Part shown: one piece after another, positions 1,379 through 10,104 of the stretch | How the letters are laid out: every line of letters begins with the position of its first letter | How positions within the stretch are numbered: the stretch's first letter is position 1 | DNA from: a virus | Taxonomy: Duplodnaviria > Heunggongvirae > Uroviricota > Caudoviricetes | IMG/VR virus record: IMGVR_UViG_2728369184_000010 | Span: 1-10,104 of that record | Length of the DNA stretch: 10,104 nucleotides | Strand: one strand, 5' to 3' | Program-made: the position numbers and the translations under genes | Notes under the pieces: generated by a model | What the model saw: only the letters and a program-made list of their open reading frames with translations | Database searches by the model: none | What the model was told of the DNA's origin: nothing

Positions 1379-2047
1379 ATGGTGAAATTAATGAAAAAAA
1401 ACACAGATGATGGGGCTAAAATTTACACACCACTTACCCTAAAGCTTTATGACTGGTGGGTTTTGGGAGTATCAAATCGGCTTGCATGGGGATGTCCTAC
1501 AAAGGAACACCTTCTTCCACACTTTCTGGAACATTTAGGTAACAACCATCTGGATATTGGTGTTGGAACTGGGTTTTACCTTACTCACGTACCTGAGAGT
1601 AGTCTGATATCTTTAATGGATTTGAACGAAGCTAGCCTGAACGCGGCATCTACAAGGGCTGGGGAATCAAAAATTAAACATAAAATTAGCCATGATGTTT
1701 TTGAACCTTATCCCGCGACGTTACATGGTCAATTTGATTCCATTTCCATGTTTTACCTTCTTCACTGCCTGCCTGGAAATATATCTACAAAAAGCTGTGT
1801 AATACGCAATGCGGCGCAGGCCTTAACTGACGATGGAACTCTATACGGAGCCACAATTCTTGGCGATGGAGTTGTGCACAATAGCTTCGGTCAAAAACTG
1901 ATGCGCATTTACAATCAGAAAGGCATCTTTTCAAACACAAAAGATTCCGAAGAAGGCTTAACACATATACTCTCAGAGCATTTCGAGAATGTTAAAACCA
2001 AGGTTCAAGGTACTGTAGTAATGTTTTCCGCTTCAGGGAAAAAATAG
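1379..2047 (+). CDS. Class I (Rossmann-fold) SAM-dependent methyltransferase, substrate unknown; accessory (moron) gene on the strand opposite to the phage late genes
   Basis: 222-aa ORF with a glycine-rich SAM motif I (HLDIGVGTGFYL), an acidic post-I motif (SLMDLNEAS) and a hydrophobic motif III-like stretch (FDSISMFYLLHCLP). No DPPY/NPPY or PCQ motif typical of DNA methyltransferases. Composition is AT-richer than flanking phage genes (by eye ~40% GC versus over 50%). An alternative start at ATG 1391 (MKKNTDD) has a slightly better upstream GGTG. Confidence 0.75.
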   Translation: MVKLMKKNTDDGAKIYTPLTLKLYDWWVLGVSNRLAWGCPTKEHLLPHFLEHLGNNHLDIGVGTGFYLTHVPESSLISLMDLNEASLNAASTRAGESKIKHKISHDVFEPYPATLHGQFDSISMFYLLHCLPGNISTKSCVIRNAAQALTDDGTLYGATILGDGVVHNSFGQKLMRIYNQKGIFSNTKDSEEGLTHILSEHFENVKTKVQGTVVMFSASGKK

Positions 2048-2557: not shown

Positions 2558-4387
2558 TCAATAGCGGATTGTCCCTACATCCATTTCTGGCGAATCCACT
2601 AACCAGAAATTATCTGGCTTTACAGCCAGAATGATCCAGGCAGTGTTTGTTGTTGATGGCCAGGAAGGCAGCACATCGTATGCCAGGTTATCGCAAGAAT
2701 CACGATAACCGTACTCATTAAAAAGTGGAGCCATTGCTGCCACAAGATTCACCGCATTCAGCTCATTACCCAGCTTGCGCTCAAAAAGTGCCACACCTGC
2801 CGTTCCTTCCACCCACACGCCACGGCTGTGACCACTATAACCATAATCAGGGTGGTACGGTGTGTAACCCGTGGTTTCCCTCGTACCAAATAAAAAACGC
2901 CCCATATATTTTCGGCACTTAGCCGCTTTCTCAGCATCAATATTGGCAACAAACAATCCGCCCCAGGAAGACTGATCCAGCGCCGCTGCGTTGTCATAGT
3001 GGGTTGAATGAACCCCCTGTCGAAATCGGCCTTCATCTTCCACCCACAGACCTCTGATGATACTCTTTGCCAGCCTGTCAGCCCGCTCACTGAAACCGTC
3101 AAATCCCAGCCGTCCCATCAGTTCAAACAAAAACCAGATATCAACGTTATGCTCCAGTGCGCACCATTCGGCGACGAAAGTTTCATCAAAATTGCCGTCC
3201 ACATAACGCCCCTGCCCCCCTTTATACAGGCCTTCACGCAGGTCGCCTGGTGTGCTCACCAGAAAAGTATCCAGCCAGGCAATGCCTGCCAATAGCTTTT
3301 CTCTGACCCGCGCAGTCTGAGTACCGTCCGGATACTTCTCCAGATAGAAAGCAAGAGCATAATAAACCCATGCCGCATTGCCCAAGCGGTAATAGGTACG
3401 CGGTGACATGGCAGACAGCCTGTTAACAAAAAACTTTACTCCACCGTTTTCATCAACAAGCGCACACAAGCCCGCAACGTATCTTTCTACAGCCTCATGT
3501 CGCTGAACCATCAACGCCAGTGCTGCCAGCGCCTGGTCATACGTGTAACACCGATCTTTCATCACCCTGATCACTTCGGGGTCTGCGTCCTCCGGCATCC
3601 AGTAGCTACGAATGAGCAGTGGAAACTCCAGCGTTGTGATCCACGCATTATCCTCAATCCGAATAAGACGAAACTGTTTTGCTCCCGTCCAGCAACGTCT
3701 GAAATAGAAAGTTCCGTCACTATTCAAATTAGCGTCGCCGTTAAAATACTCTCCGGTTGTATAAGCATACATTTCGACTTTATACTTTTCTGGTTCAGAA
3801 ATATCGCAATATCCGTTAACTGCACCGACATAATTAAAATCGATATTTTCTTTTATTTTTAAAGATATTGATGTATCAACAACCTCGGGTTGTTCCAGTT
3901 TTAACATTGCAGTAGTGCAACGACTCACGATGTCGTCAAAGTTCTCAAAGCGCAAACCGGGAAAACTATCGGCTATTCCCTGCATTTCAGACAGTAACGC
4001 TTCTGCCCTTTTTGTCGCTGATATTGCCACATCTGCACTTCGTCGCGCCTGACTTGTCAAATCTTCAAATCGTTTCACCACATCTGGCTTCAGGTCGCCT
4101 TCGTCGGGGGCAGTCAGAAAATCATTCAGCGTACCTGGTCTGGAACCTTCATAAACGGTAATGGTCCCGGCATGTGAAGGCGGAAAACCTTCAACCAGCA
4201 GGGTGACGCTGTACTGACCATACTCAACATCCATGCTGTAACGTCCAGCTTCATCCGGATTTTCTGAGGCCACCGTGTTCACCACAACCGTTGTGCTGTT
4301 ACGTTTTGCCTTCAGTTGAATAGTGCAGTTCTGTATTGGTTTTCCCGCACCATCTTTCAGCACACCTGAGATTTTTACTGCTGCCAT
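2558..4387 (-). CDS. stf: Side-tail-fibre-like protein: lambda Stf N-terminal tail-attachment domain fused to a divergent ~520-aa C-terminal globular domain (putative receptor-binding or polysaccharide-degrading module)
   Basis: The N-terminal ~90 aa (MAAVKISGVLKDGAGKPIQNCTIQLKAKRNSTTVVVNT...GTITVYEGSRPGTLNDFL) closely match the lambda Stf N-terminus as I recall it. The rest lacks the Ala/Ser/Thr-rich fibre repeats of lambda Stf and is instead rich in aromatic, helix-like segments (TYDQALAALALMV, NAAWVYYALAFYLEKY, WCALEHNVDIWFLFELMGRLG, DNAAALDQSSWGGLF). The position after lom matches lambda stf. The ORF-track start is a GTG at 4393; the ATG at 4385-4387 is preceded by GGGGTGGA and aligns with the lambda start. 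Confidence 0.8.
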   Translation of the reverse strand: MAAVKISGVLKDGAGKPIQNCTIQLKAKRNSTTVVVNTVASENPDEAGRYSMDVEYGQYSVTLLVEGFPPSHAGTITVYEGSRPGTLNDFLTAPDEGDLKPDVVKRFEDLTSQARRSADVAISATKRAEALLSEMQGIADSFPGLRFENFDDIVSRCTTAMLKLEQPEVVDTSISLKIKENIDFNYVGAVNGYCDISEPEKYKVEMYAYTTGEYFNGDANLNSDGTFYFRRCWTGAKQFRLIRIEDNAWITTLEFPLLIRSYWMPEDADPEVIRVMKDRCYTYDQALAALALMVQRHEAVERYVAGLCALVDENGGVKFFVNRLSAMSPRTYYRLGNAAWVYYALAFYLEKYPDGTQTARVREKLLAGIAWLDTFLVSTPGDLREGLYKGGQGRYVDGNFDETFVAEWCALEHNVDIWFLFELMGRLGFDGFSERADRLAKSIIRGLWVEDEGRFRQGVHSTHYDNAAALDQSSWGGLFVANIDAEKAAKCRKYMGRFLFGTRETTGYTPYHPDYGYSGHSRGVWVEGTAGVALFERKLGNELNAVNLVAAMAPLFNEYGYRDSCDNLAYDVLPSWPSTTNTAWIILAVKPDNFWLVDSPEMDVGTIRY

Positions 4388-4397
4388 ATCCACCCCA

Positions 4398-4441: not shown

Positions 4442-5041
4442 TCAGAATTTATAACCGACACCCACGATAAAACCGTCAGTGCGCCAGTCACCACTGCCGG
4501 AGCCTTCATAAGCAATATCAATGGCCACGGATTCGGTCGGGTTAAACTGCACGCCAGCCCCCCACGCCAGAGACGTGTTACTGTGGCGACCATCATCACT
4601 TGCGGTCAGCACATCGTGCGTTTTCCCCTTGTTGTCAGTTACGCGGAGATAATCCCCGGAGAAAGTCGAAACACGGCTGTAAGCCACACCCGCCATCGCA
4701 TATGCGCTGAACCACTCATTCACGCGCACAGATGGCCCCGCCATCATGCTGAACCAGCGGTTACGCACTGAATCTTCATGCCAGCGGGTATCACTGTAAC
4801 GGGTAATCTGGCGATTCTTGTCTCCAGCATAACTGAATGACGTCACCAGCCCCAGCGTGTCCGTAAATTCATAACGGTATTTCACGTTAATGCCCTTCAG
4901 GTCATCGTTGCCGGGCATATCAGTATGGGACTGAATATACCCGGAGCTTAGTGTGGACTGATGCTCTGCTGCACTCGCTGGCGTACCAGCGGCAACCAGC
5001 CAGACTACTGCGGACAGAATAACAGCACATAATTTACGCAT
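4442..5041 (-). CDS. lom: Lom/Ail/PagC-family outer-membrane beta-barrel protein
   Basis: 199-aa ORF with a signal peptide ([24 protein letters not shown]). The C-terminus [23 protein letters not shown] is identical to lambda Lom as I recall it. It sits immediately downstream of J as in lambda. The - strand has GAGAGG upstream of the ATG. Confidence 0.9.
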
Positions 5042-5065: not shown

Positions 5066-5089
5066 AAAAAAGGCGCCATTTCTGGCGCC
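5066..5089 (-). terminator. Rho-independent terminator between J and lom
   Basis: On the - strand: 7-bp stem GGCGCCA / TGGCGCC with a 4-nt loop, followed by TTTTTT. It lies in the 67-bp J-lom spacer. Confidence 0.6.
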
Positions 5090-5108: not shown

Positions 5109-8100
5109 TCAGCTAATCGTGATGCCTGCAGTGGCTTTCTTCATCACCACAACCAGCAAATCGCTGATACTTGCTGTGGGATACCAACCATTTACCCACC
5201 ATGCTGATACAGAAAACTCCAGTGTCATTACGCCACTGCCTGCAGGCATATCAATAACACCCGTGTATATCAGCGTATTATCCAGAGCCGTTCGGTTATA
5301 AATTTCAGCCCCGTTTTTCTTCACTATCAGGCGGCATGACGAATAAGTATCGCTATTCTCCCGCTCATGTCTGGCACCGCTGAAAGCCACCGCAGGAATA
5401 ACAATTTGCCGGTCAAACGGCTGATCGTCATAAACCCTGACGGTAATGGTCCCTGATGGCCACCGCTCCGGTGCACGGGAGTCCCGGGGGAAAGCTTTGC
5501 CCACTGTTTTAACGAGATCGCCTTCAATCTGGTTCGCGGACAGTTTTCCCAGAACCCGACAGTTCTCGTTAATCGTGACGTTGTTGAGCGTCCCTGAATT
5601 TGCATTCACATTACCGCTGATATCCGCATTTTTAGCGGTCAGCTTTCCGTCCGGTGTCAGGGAAAATGCCGGCGGATTTCCACCGCTGGTAATGGTGGGA
5701 GCCGTCAGGCGTTTCAGGAACACGTCGTTCATGAATATCTGGTTGCCCTGCGCCACAAACATCGGCGTTTCATTCCCGTTTGCCGGGTCAATAAACGCGA
5801 TACGATTGGCGGCAACCAGAAACTGGCTCAGCTTGCCTTCCTCCGTGTCCTCCATGCTGAGGCCAATACCCGCGACATAATGTTTGCCGTCTTTGGTCTG
5901 CTCAATTTTGACGCCCCACATAGCATTCCATTTATCGTTAGCGTCCTTCCACTCTTTCGAAAACTCATCCAGTCTGCTGGCGTTATCCTCCGTCAGGTCG
6001 ACTTTTTTCAGCAGCTCTTTACCGAGATGGGATTCGGTTATCTTGCCTTTGAAAAAATCCAGGTAACCTTCCGCATCATCGCTCGCCCGACCGACGGCCT
6101 CCACGAATGCCGATTTGCCAACGGTGTTCACACTGCGGATATAAAAGTAATAATCATGGCCCGGTTTGATATTGATACTGGCGGCTATCCAGTACAGCCC
6201 CGTGCCAAGGTAGCGGGCTGTGGTTTCAACCTGCCTGATATCGGTAATCCGCGTTTCCGAGAACCAGAACTCAAACTGTACCGTCGGATCATAAACCGCA
6301 AGATGCGGCGTGGCAGTTATCTGAAAATAGCCCGGCGTCAGCTCAATCCGCGACGGCGCTGCCGGGGCGGCAATCCGGAACGATACCGATGCCGGATCGC
6401 CCTGCTGCCCCCAGGCATTTGCCGCCCGGACTGTCAGCCTGTAGTTTCCCAGCGCCAGTTGCGTGAAGCGGTATGTGGTTTCCGTCGTCCGGGCCGTGCT
6501 GACCAGCCGCTCACTGCCGTCATCCGCTGCCACGGTCAGGCGAAGCATAAAGCTCACACCCTTCACCACCTTCGGCGTATCCCAGCGCGCCAGCACCTGG
6601 TATTCCCCGCTGTCTGCGGTGACTTCGGCAGTCAGATGCTGCACTGCTGGCGGTGTGACCCCGTTCACCGTGCCGCTCTGGTCGCCGTCAAAGTGCGCCC
6701 CGTTATCCACGATGGCCTCTTTTTCCGGTACATGCTGCACGGCGGTGATGGCATACGTGCCGTTGTCGTTCTCACGGATACTCACGCAGCGGAACAGGCG
6801 CTGGCGCAGCGTCGGCAGCTTCAGCCCCCACACGCTGTATTCAGCAACGCCGTCAGGAACACGGCTCACTTTTACCTTCACGCCGTCGGTGACGGACTGG
6901 ATCTCCACGCTGACCGGATTGCCACTTCCGTCAACCAGGCTTATCAGCGTGGTACCGGAGGATGGCAGCGTGATTTCACGGTCGAGCGTCAGCGTCCGGG
7001 TCTGGCTGTTCACCGCCAGCACACGACCACCGGTGCTGATACCGGCATAGTCATCATCACAGATTTCAATGACATCGCCCGGCACATGGCGAAGCCCTTC
7101 GGCACCCACGCTGAAGTCCACGGTCTGCGTTTCCAGCAGTTCCGTTTTAATCAGCCACAGCCCGGCTCTGTGTGCCTGCCCCCGACTGGTACAGCCAAAA
7201 GCATCCATCTTCGTGACGTTACGACCGTAACGGGCAATGGCCTGCGTGTCCTCCACAAGCTCTGTCGCCGTCTCCCAGCCATTATTCGGGTCAATCCAGT
7301 TCACCTCAACGGCATTATGGCGGTCCTTCAGGGCGCTGAAGCTGTAGCGGAACGGCGCGCCATCATCCGGCATCACCACATTACTGCGGTTATAGGTCCA
7401 CACCTTATCCGACCGTCGGTCCTGCACGAACGTCAGCGTCTGCCCGTTCCATACCGGCATACAGCGCATCGCCGAGCAGAAATCACTGAGCACATCCCAC
7501 GCCTTGCGCTGCGTGGTCATGTACGCATTACAGGTGATGCGCGGCTCCGTGCCACCAAAGCCATCCGGCACCGACTGGTCGCAATTCTGGCCGATGACAT
7601 ACAGCGCCCATTTATCCACATCCGCCGCACCAAGACGTTTCCCCATGCCGTAGCGCGGATGGGTCAGCATATCCCACAGACACCAGGCCATGTTGTTGCT
7701 GTATGCTGGCTTAAACGTTCCGTCCCAGATACCGCTGTATTGCCGCGTCTGCGGGTTATAGTTCGACGGCACCTGCAGAATACGCCCGCGAAGATGATAA
7801 TTACGGCTCACCTGCTGACTGCCGAACTGTTCCGACTCCACCTGCACGCCGACCAGTGCCGTGTTCGGGTAGCACTGTTTCACATCGATGATTTCGGTGT
7901 ATGACGACCAGAGCGTTTTGTTCTGCAGCTGGTCTGTGGTGCTGTCCGGCGTCATCCTGCGCATCCGGATATTAAACGGGCGCGGCGGCAGGTTATCCAC
8001 CACTACCGATGCCAGATACTGCGAGGTGGTTTTGCCCTTAATGGTGATGTCTTTTTCCGTCACCCAGCCACCGTTACGTTGTATCTGAACCAGCAGGCGG

Positions 8101-8504
8101 ACTTCCGATGGATTCCGGTCCCCTTTTGAGGTGGTTTCCACCAGAGCCTGCACACCGAAGGTAAAACGCAGACGGTCGATGTTTGCAGACGTGATGGTCC
8201 GGATGATCGGCGTGTCGTATTTCACTTCCGTACCCAGCACCTTCTCGGAGCCGGAGGATTCAAATCCCTCCGGCGGAGTCTGCTCCTGCTCACCAGCCAG
8301 GAACACCACCGTGACACCGGCGATGTTGGTATTCCCCTCACTGTCCAGCACCGGCGTACTGTTCAGCAGCACGCTTTTTAATCCATCCACCGGACCTTCA
8401 ACCGGCCCTTCACTGATGGCATCAATCACACTCAGCAACTGCGTGGATTTCAGGTTGTCCTTCGCTTCGCGCGGGGTATGCCCCTTACTGCTGCCTTTAC
8501 CCAT
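5109..8504 (-). CDS. J: Tail tip / host-specificity protein J (central tail fibre); lambda-like except for the C-terminal ~140 aa
   Basis: 1131-aa ORF. The N-terminus [34 protein letters not shown]... and most of the length match lambda gpJ as I recall it. The - strand has GGAG upstream of the ATG. Gene order is L-K-I-J-lom. Confidence 0.95.
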
Positions 8505-8564: not shown

Positions 8565-9197
8565 TCAGCGACCAATCACCACAACCTGACCACCATCCCC
8601 TTCGTCTGCCGTGCTGATCTCCTGAGAAACCACGCGAGACCCCACGCGCATTTCCCCGTACAGAACAGGCAGAACATTGCCCTGGGCAACCATGTTATCC
8701 AGTGAGGAGAAATAGGTGTTCTGCTTACCGTTATCCGTTGTCTGTGTACGGGGAGTTCTGGCTTTCGGTGCCAGCATCTGCGCCACANNNNNNNNNNNNN
8801 NNNNNNNNNNNGCTGCCCCCCATGCTGCAAGGGTGGCTCCGGCGGTAAAGAATGATCCGGCAATGGCGGCAGCCCCCAGGACAATCTGGAATACGCCACC
8901 TGACTTGGCCCCGGCGACTCTGGGAACAATATGAATCACAGCGCCATCAGGCAGAGTCTCATGTAACTGCGCCGTTAACCCGGACGTGCTGACGTCCCGC
9001 CCGGCAATCCGTACCTGATACCAGCCGTCGCTCAGTTTCTGACGAAACGCCGGGAGCTGTGTGGCCAGTGCCCGGATGGCTTCAGCCCCCGTTTTCACAC
9101 GAAGGTCGATGCGGCGACCAAATCGTTGTAAATCCCCGTAAAGGCAGATGCGCGCCATGCCCGGTGACGCCAGAGGGAGTGTGTGCGTCGCTGCCAT
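8565..9197 (-). CDS. I: Tail assembly protein I; coding sequence interrupted by a 24-N gap
   Basis: MAATHTLPLASPGMARICLYGDLQRFGRRIDLRVKTGAEAIRALATQ... matches lambda gpI. It overlaps the 3' end of K by 103 nt in another frame, as in lambda, and the 60-nt I-J spacer is lambda-like. The N-run falls in the Gly/Ala-rich region. Confidence 0.9.
   Translation of the reverse strand: MAATHTLPLASPGMARICLYGDLQRFGRRIDLRVKTGAEAIRALATQLPAFRQKLSDGWYQVRIAGRDVSTSGLTAQLHETLPDGAVIHIVPRVAGAKSGGVFQIVLGAAAIAGSFFTAGATLAAWGAXXXXXXXXXVAQMLAPKARTPRTQTTDNGKQNTYFSSLDNMVAQGNVLPVLYGEMRVGSRVVSQEISTADEGDGGQVVVIGR
8788..8811. other. Run of 24 N (assembly gap or masked bases) inside gene I
   Basis: Seen directly. Lambda gpI has about 22 residues where this window shows about 9 X, so the N-run probably under-represents the true length. 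Confidence 0.95.
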
Positions 9198-9838
9198 TTG
9201 TCGGTGTACCTCTCTCGTTTGCTCAGTTGTTCAGGAATATGGTGCAGCAGCTCGCCGTCGCCGCAGTAAATTGCGGCGTGATTCGGCACTGATGAACCAA
9301 AACAGCACAGCAGCACATCGCCCGGCTGTGCCGCTGACAACGGCACCTGATACAGCCCCGTCGCCTCCAGATTATCCAGATAGAGATTCTGGCCGTTACG
9401 CCACCAGTCATCCTCACGATAAAAGTCCGGCATCTCAATCCCCGCCAGATGATAAGCATCCCGGAACAGTGTGTAACAGTCCGTCACACCGTGCTCAAAG
9501 CGCCGCCCGGTGAGATGCGGCACACAGCGGAACTTATGAATCGTCCCCCGGCAGACCAGCCACCACGGCAAATCACTCTGCACCTGCAGCCGCCGGTCGG
9601 CCTCACTCAGCCAGGGCAGACCACCGGGGTGGCTGTGGACCAGCGCCACAATCTCACCCTGCATTTCTGCCTGCAGCCAGTCTTCCGGCGACATACGGAA
9701 ATACGCCTCCGGCTCACCGGAGATATTCACGCAGGGGAAATATCTTTCCCCCTCCGGCGTGCTTACCACGAAGCCGCACGACTCCGCTGGCGCACATCGC
9801 CGGGCGTGCGCCAGAATCGCTGATTCTGTCTGTGTCAT
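9095..9838 (-). CDS. K: Tail tip assembly protein K with an N-terminal MPN/JAMM motif and a C-terminal NlpC/P60-like Cys/His region
   Basis: 247-aa ORF starting 6 nt after the L stop. JAMM motif HSHPGGLPWLSEAD (H-x-H-x7-S-x2-D). NlpC/P60-like Cys (VTDCYTLF) and His residues (NHAAIYCG...LLHH). The classical lambda annotation may begin at the internal Met49 (MSPEDWLQ, about 199 aa), but the upstream segment is needed for a complete MPN domain. Confidence 0.9.
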   Translation of the reverse strand: MTQTESAILAHARRCAPAESCGFVVSTPEGERYFPCVNISGEPEAYFRMSPEDWLQAEMQGEIVALVHSHPGGLPWLSEADRRLQVQSDLPWWLVCRGTIHKFRCVPHLTGRRFEHGVTDCYTLFRDAYHLAGIEMPDFYREDDWWRNGQNLYLDNLEATGLYQVPLSAAQPGDVLLCCFGSSVPNHAAIYCGDGELLHHIPEQLSKRERYTDKWQRRTHSLWRHRAWRASAFTGIYNDLVAASTFV

Positions 9839-9843
9839 GGGAT

Positions 9844-10104
9844 TTACTGCGAAAGTTTGTTAATGGAAAGGAAGCCGCCAAAGTTGCCGACGTTATTGCG
9901 GAACTTACAACCGCTCAGGCATTTGCTGCATTTATCCTTCGTGATATCGGACGTTGGCTGGTCATATTCATCCGCGACAGCAGGACCGCTATAACCGCAC
10001 TCGTCACCGCGATAGGTCCAGGTGCAGGTGTTGGCCAGCATGATTCGTCCCGGAAAAACAGCGCCGTCCGTTTCCGTCGGCGTGGACAGTACAAAAGAGG
10101 CACT
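9844..10104 (-). CDS. L: Tail tip protein L, C-terminal part; the 5' end lies beyond the window
   Basis: Frame is open to the window edge and ends ...CSKCLSGCKFRNNVGNFGGFLSINKLSQ followed by TAA at 9844-9846. It sits immediately upstream of K as in lambda. The Cys-rich C-terminus is typical of gpL. Confidence 0.85.
   Translation of the reverse strand, partial: SASFVLSTPTETDGAVFPGRIMLANTCTWTYRGDECGYSGPAVADEYDQPTSDITKDKCSKCLSGCKFRNNVGNFGGFLSINKLSQ

Follow-up and report, generated by a model that had tools for sequence, protein, structure and literature searches.

The central tail fibre protein J (gpJ) of phage lambda carries a C-terminal Ig-like receptor-binding domain (RBD), four bottom loops of which enter LamB, and this binding triggers the opening of the tail (PMC11101478). 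Phage 434 is the classical case in which a swap in J changed the receptor to OmpC (PMC3509688). Phage phi330 also needs OmpC, since its infectivity is lost upon deletion of ompC (Keio) and regained on complementation, and the hairpin E953-S962 of its J protein is predicted by AlphaFold3 to point into the OmpC barrel (PMC12502783). Brödel et al. (Nature 2024) took C-terminal parts of J genes from natural prophages and joined them to lambda J at residue 964 (PMC11338833). In cells deleted for lamB and ompC, one of these chimeras, 1A2, gave delivery only if ompC was provided; it used the OmpC of EDL933 but not that of MG1655, while the A8 chimera used both (PMC11338833). When a panel of OmpC variants was offered, 1A2 accepted 20 of 23, with 76-99% delivery at the highest MOI (98% for OmpC G17), and failed with G1, G2 and G40 (PMC11338833). 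Prophages integrated at the ompW site are known as PPompW (PMC8112680).

The stretch of viral DNA analysed here (10,104 nucleotides in full, hereafter the window) matches the chromosome of E. coli MS 21-1 (NZ_CP146670.1) at 100% identity and corresponds there to the right arm of a lambdoid prophage that sits in ompW, beside yciE-yciF-yciG-trpA. The junction between prophage and host lies within positions 1-700 of the window, with an ompW remnant at about 339-464 on the minus strand; the adjoining yciE carries a frameshift according to the annotation of the source genome. The minus strand carries K, I, J (5109-8504), lom (4442-5041) and a tail-fibre ORF of 611 amino acids. Gene J, encoding the tip attachment or central tail fibre protein, is an intact ORF of 1131 amino acids, with its stop codon at 5109-5111, and is labelled gpJ in RefSeq (WP_061307657.1). 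Six Pfam models matched it above their curated cut-offs and in the lambda order, namely Phage-tail_3, FNIII-A_GpJ, Ig_J, Ig_J_second, Phage_Tail_Tip and Ig_GpJ_C. The protein belongs to the lambda gpJ tip attachment family both by its set of domains (hub, FNIII-A, two Ig/FNIII domains, tail-tip fibre and C-terminal Ig RBD) and by the position of its gene in the L-K-I-J-lom-stf cluster, as seen from the RefSeq annotation of the source locus and the Pfam matches of neighbouring genes.

Comparison of the window J with lambda J (NC_001416, 15505-18903) by BLASTP revealed 1007 identities over 1131 positions with one gap, or 89% overall. An earlier note on this DNA had described J as lambda-like save for a divergent C-terminus, and the alignment bears this out: residues 1-978 are 96.5% identical to lambda J, while residues 979-1131 share 41% and are thus far from near-identical, the maximum-likelihood change-point falling after residue 978. 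Identity per 50 residues stays at 88-100% until residue 950 and then takes values of 74%, 46%, 40% and 28% over the final four windows. At the DNA level it falls from about 95% to 50-64% at approximately nucleotide 2940 of the gene, corresponding to window position 5567 or so. The first amino acid differences near the boundary occur at residues 965, 974 and 979, and a dense block of them begins at 983. In these alignments the identity step is too abrupt and too large for chance. The lambda-type backbone, residues 1-978 (5571-8504, minus strand, about 95% nucleotide identity), comprises the hub domains, the FNIII/Ig domains, the helical shaft and the beta-prism fibre. The divergent block, residues 979-1131 (5112-5570), is about 153 residues long, so that the extent given earlier, about 140 residues at 5109-5530, was right in substance but slightly too small. 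The protein string opening NVNANSG, which had been placed near 5530, actually starts at residue 965 (window position about 5610).

This block (minus strand) is the exchanged receptor-binding module, assigned by sequence identities and an AlphaFold model to a type, here termed class A, that is shared with 1A2, VT1-Sakai and PhiR47_1. The Pfam model PF12421 (Ig_GpJ_C, 'Tip attachment protein J, C-terminal receptor binding domain') covers residues 1001-1131 (5112-5504, E = 7e-37), and the remaining gpJ domains all match upstream of it. The module is 99% identical to that of PhiR47_1, 94% to that of 2G7b and 93% to that of VT1-Sakai, against 61-62% for phi330 and A8, 41-42% for 434 and WGPS6, and 41% for lambda. 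Among PDB sequences, the last 263 residues of J matched 'A8 gpJ 713' (9wca/9wcb, E = 7e-127) and lambda J (8xcj/8xck, 8iyk). The AlphaFold model of residues 962-1131 has a mean pLDDT of 77.9, with values above 80 in the beta-sandwich core. Its best structural matches are again 9wca/9wcb (A8, 62% identity) and 8xck/8xcj (lambda, 46%), with TM-scores of 0.69-0.75; Foldseek matched it to the A8 or phi330-type RBD (9wcb) with E = 7e-18 and a TM-score of 0.72, and the fold is shared. The module nevertheless falls outside the A8/phi330 allele class, which it resembles at only 61-62% identity and with indels in the loops.

Four loops of the modelled RBD, all on the minus strand, were related to described ones, the nomenclature of the lambda bottom loops being that of PMC11101478. 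The loop of residues 1008-1015 (DSRAPERW; 5460-5483), delimited by DSSP of the model, aligns with lambda QRESSVDW and with phi330 T918-Y921; it varies in length and sequence between module classes, and in the window it equals that of 1A2/Sakai exactly. The hairpin of residues 1045-1053 (RHERENSDT; 5346-5372) aligns with the phi330 hairpin E953-S962 mentioned above. The loop of residues 1087-1092 (PAGSGV; 5229-5246) belongs to the conserved motif DMPAGxGx and contains two differences from Sakai/1A2, while the hairpin of residues 1103-1111 (WVNGWYPTA; 5172-5198) aligns with phi330 A1015-P1020.

In order to place the module among those of other phages, the 153-residue sequence was compared by tblastn with 50,697 phage records, which fell into discrete groups. 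Class A, at least 92% identical to the window module, includes PhiR47_1 (99%), 2G7b (94%), VT1-Sakai, PPompW phages and many Stx2a phages. Class B (about 60%) includes 4A7, 1H12, Stx1a phages and phi330; class C (41%) lambda, DE3 and HK629; and class D (about 40%) 434, mEp460 and WGPS6. Backbones about 95% identical in DNA bear other modules in lambda, 434 and 4A7, and megablast found many J genes that are about 95% identical over nucleotides 1-2946 (434 type) or 1-3016/3020 (4A7/2H10 type) and unalignable thereafter. The converse is seen in Stx2a_1447, in which the backbone is 27-88% identical to that of the window per 50 residues (about 70% overall) and the module 87-96%. Relative to phi330, DNA identity is below 70% only in the module core (about 5200-5500), the flanks being 82-95% and lom 88-100% identical over most of the gene. 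The reciprocal profiles of lambda (96.5% backbone, 41% module) and Stx2a_1447 (the reverse) rule out gradual divergence in place of recombination, and they agree with the mosaic J that had been proposed earlier. Since backbone and module identities are reciprocal and the flanks are conserved relative to phi330, the module is, by these alignments, a cassette exchanged between conserved flanks and not a product of drift.

The downstream flank includes lom (4442-5041, minus strand), encoding an Ail/Lom outer-membrane protein of 199 amino acids (Pfam Ail_Lom, E = 2e-120). The block that diverges from lambda runs from about 5567 to about 4555, and so J module and lom were considered as a single co-moving cassette. 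This was ruled out by the Lom identities: the window Lom is 87% identical to the Lom proteins of 434, phi330 and WGPS6, carriers of three other J modules, and 47% identical to that of lambda. The divergent block extends through lom because the lambda Lom is itself the odd one; lambda stands apart from the other lambdoid phages in lom just as it does in the J module. Between J and lom, a hairpin resembling an intrinsic terminator was read from the sequence at 5066-5089 on the minus strand (GGCGCC-AGAAAT-GGCGCC followed by TTTTTT); in the phage 434 record a terminator is annotated at the same position after J. The most probable course of events is that the C-terminal Ig-like RBD of a lambda-type J (residues ~979-1131) was replaced via homologous recombination through conserved flanks, which on the upstream side are the beta-prism fibre and on the downstream side the final ~20 codons of J together with lom. 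The incoming module is the commonest one among E. coli lambdoid prophages.

Frequencies were obtained by BLAST against complete genomes, while a protein search with the module, which returned mostly fragmentary proteins, was used only for the structure alignment. Of 5426 complete E. coli genomes, 3350 carried the 452-nt window module at above 80% coverage, and the median copy number among these positive genomes was two. The lambda module was present in 98 of the 5426, always at 99% identity or more, and the genomes listed among these are of laboratory strains, e.g. DE3 lysogens. The swap is not unusual: among E. coli prophages the window module is common and that of lambda rare. In kind the finding is already known, being the textbook modularity of lambdoid J with the commonest module.

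It might still be argued that J is a relic of a defective prophage, that its receptor-binding role is lost and that the module has no current function. Such a reading would account for the tail-fibre-assembly gene fragments and pseudogenes in the right arm of the prophage and for the 13-residue in-frame deletion in gene I relative to lambda. It is very unlikely, as J is full-length with all its domains; K, I, L, lom and the 611-aa tail-fibre ORF are open as well; the identical 153-residue module occurs within a protein cluster of 466 member sequences; and modules 99% identical to it are found in the isolated phage PhiR47_1. It also concerns activity in strain MS 21-1 and not the identity of the module.

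Several other features of the prophage arm were recorded. Gene I (tail assembly protein, 8565-9197, minus strand) is otherwise almost identical to lambda I and lacks the 13 residues after lambda residue ~128, a Gly/Ala-rich hydrophobic segment (deletion near 8770-8812); the Gly/Ala-rich region of lambda I has been proposed to have a membrane-spanning capability (PMC11101478). From about 8600 to 10004 (the end of L, the whole of K and the 5' portion of I) the DNA matches lambda at 99-100% identity, against about 95% for J, and this difference suggests that a second boundary in the mosaic, of more recent origin, lies close to where I meets J. The 611-aa ORF at 2558-4393 (minus strand) is intact; its first ~110 residues form the N-terminal domain of a lambda-type side tail fibre (PF08400), and the remaining part has a full-length match to phrog_4128 ('tail fiber protein'; E = 3e-198). 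In RefSeq only a 417-nt N-terminal fragment is shown here, as a pseudogene, so that annotation may have missed a complete side fibre of non-lambda type in this prophage. On the opposite strand, among the tail-fibre-assembly gene fragments, positions 1379-2047 (plus strand) encode a class I SAM-dependent methyltransferase (phrog_2132, full length), which looks like a cargo gene ('moron') near the end of the prophage.

The swapped C-terminus had been taken in the earlier note to imply a different receptor, and the match to PF12421 together with 93% identity to VT1-Sakai, practically the OmpC-using 1A2 module, supports this; the note named no replacement, and the sequence relatives point to OmpC. 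DNA of gpJ-1A2 and gpJ-A8 was taken from the supplement of PMC11338833, a machine-read PDF with about five unreadable codons and a few reading errors, and was subjected to frameshift-tolerant translation. Over the readable positions the 1A2 module departs from the VT1-Sakai allele only once, and its identity to the window module is 91%, the clean figure being the 93% for Sakai. The translated A8 is 96% identical to phi330 and belongs to class B. Because its two nearest module relatives are experimental OmpC binders, one of them 93% identical, the receptor of the module is probably OmpC rather than LamB. The near-identity to the tested module is the ground on which this sub-allele most likely uses OmpC and on which the OmpC alleles that it would accept are judged.

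The fold and many framework residues, FPR, DDxxFDRQ, NG and DMPAG among them, are common to the window module and lambda (TM-score of 0.75 to 8xck), as might be expected if the module still used LamB and its divergence were neutral drift within a LamB-binding domain. That reading is extremely improbable. By sequence the module does not belong to the LamB-binding, lambda-type RBDs, with which it shares just 41% identity and from whose aligned loop segments its own differ, the reciprocal mosaic pattern excludes drift, and the near-identical 1A2 module is active in lamB-deleted cells and dependent on OmpC.

The OmpC of the host strain MS 21-1 (ompC at L013:31747-32850) aligns without gaps to that of EDL933 (719 bits), taken from PDB 9wcb, whose title describes A8 gpJ bound to 'OmpC G17 from E. 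coli EDL933'. The alignment with K-12 OmpC (688 bits) contains two 4-residue indels as well as several substitutions, located in surface loops. A host OmpC whose loop lengths resemble those of EDL933 is consistent, as circumstantial evidence, with a 1A2-like preference of the window module. As in lambda, the central fibre would end in three copies of the RBD, the bottom loops of which would enter a trimeric porin of the outer membrane, and porin binding would lead to tail opening; with the window module this porin would most likely be OmpC of the non-K-12, EDL933-like kind rather than LamB.

With 93% identity to VT1-Sakai, 94% to 2G7b and 91% to the readable part of 1A2, and no indels, the window module lies within class A as delimited by at least ~90% identity over the whole module and equal loop lengths. 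It differs from the Sakai/1A2 module at 11 of 149 positions (1045, 1048, 1050, 1051, 1053, 1062, 1081, 1090, 1092, 1103 and 1106), and nine of these are in or beside three modelled loops. The first five belong to the 1045-1053 hairpin; the loop 1087-1092 contains S1090H and V1092H, and the hairpin 1103-1111 W1103L and G1106N (window versus Sakai/1A2). Two of the three variable loops align with phi330 hairpins that are predicted to enter the OmpC barrel and touch its rim (PMC12502783). Of the putative contact loops, whose role is taken from the AlphaFold3 model of phi330 (PMC12502783), 1008-1015 is thus identical to that of 1A2/Sakai, while 1045-1053, 1090/1092 and 1103/1106 differ. Since two of the three variable loops are predicted contacts in phi330, fine specificity for OmpC alleles may not be that of 1A2, and acceptance of particular alleles, or even the choice of porin, could differ. 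It is conceivable, though rather doubtful, that the window sub-allele (RHERENSDT / AGSGV / AWWVNGW) recognises a different set of OmpC alleles, e.g. one tuned to the OmpC loops of MS 21-1; if so, an arms race between the tips of prophage tails and the surface loops of OmpC would be recorded in the variation within class A.

Less likely still is a complete move of the sub-allele to another porin. In general form, the proposal is that OmpC is not the receptor and that the module, with contact loops unlike those of 1A2, binds some other porin or outer-membrane protein, such as OmpF or one specific to the strain. It draws on the nine differences in or beside three loops, two of which are predicted OmpC contacts in phi330, and on reports that one or a few substitutions in J can shift lambda and phi21 between LamB, OmpC and OmpF (PMC11336670; PMC3509688). 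We consider it unlikely, because an OmpC-using allele shares 93% identity with the module, OmpC is used by the next class (61%) as well, the 20 of 23 variants tolerated by 1A2 indicate that the class is a broad OmpC binder, and the host OmpC is EDL933-like.

With OmpC as the preferred reading, the main gain is one of annotation: a J protein described as '89% lambda' should not be presumed to use LamB; its last ~150 residues decide the receptor, and the commonest module of E. coli prophages points to OmpC. This is relevant to host-range prediction for lambdoid prophages, including Stx-converting ones, and to the choice of J module in engineered lambda delivery particles. Current understanding is not challenged by the result.

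Among known systems, lambda J (P03749; 8xcj with LamB) shares with the window J the backbone, the domain architecture and the gene order, and presumably also the receptor-triggered mechanism of tail opening (PMC11101478); it differs in the RBD and its aligned loop segments, and binds LamB. The J gene of phage 434, an OmpC phage, is 95.3% identical to the window J over the first 2946 nt, but its module is of another class, 42% identical and with longer loops. The J proteins of A8 and phi330, both proven OmpC binders (9wca/9wcb; PMC12502783), represent the nearest other class and have the same fold and almost identical last ~20 residues; their first loop is four residues shorter and their hairpin five residues longer than in the window module. 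The A8 chimera also uses K-12 OmpC, which 1A2 does not.

The J gene of phage PhiR47_1 (PV340566) is 95.6% identical to that of the window in DNA over its whole length, and 38 of 1131 residues differ, only two of them in the module. The gene order J-lom-stf is shared as well, while the side tail fibre matches that of the window over the first ~110 residues only. A literature search for PhiR phages, including PhiR47_1, found no relevant paper and no receptor data; the listed class-A PhiR phages were propagated on ECOR13 or E. coli C and none on K-12, which is a weak hint only. The gpJ-1A2 chimera (PMC11338833), which carries the J allele of VT1-Sakai and PPompW prophages, agrees with the window J in module class, length and loop lengths, in its lambda-type backbone and in the junction, placed at lambda residue 964 in 1A2 and followed by the first difference at residue 965 in the window. 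It differs by the 11 substitutions, nine of which are in or beside loops 1045-1053, 1090/1092 and 1103/1106, and in origin, 1A2 being an engineered fusion and the window J a natural mosaic.
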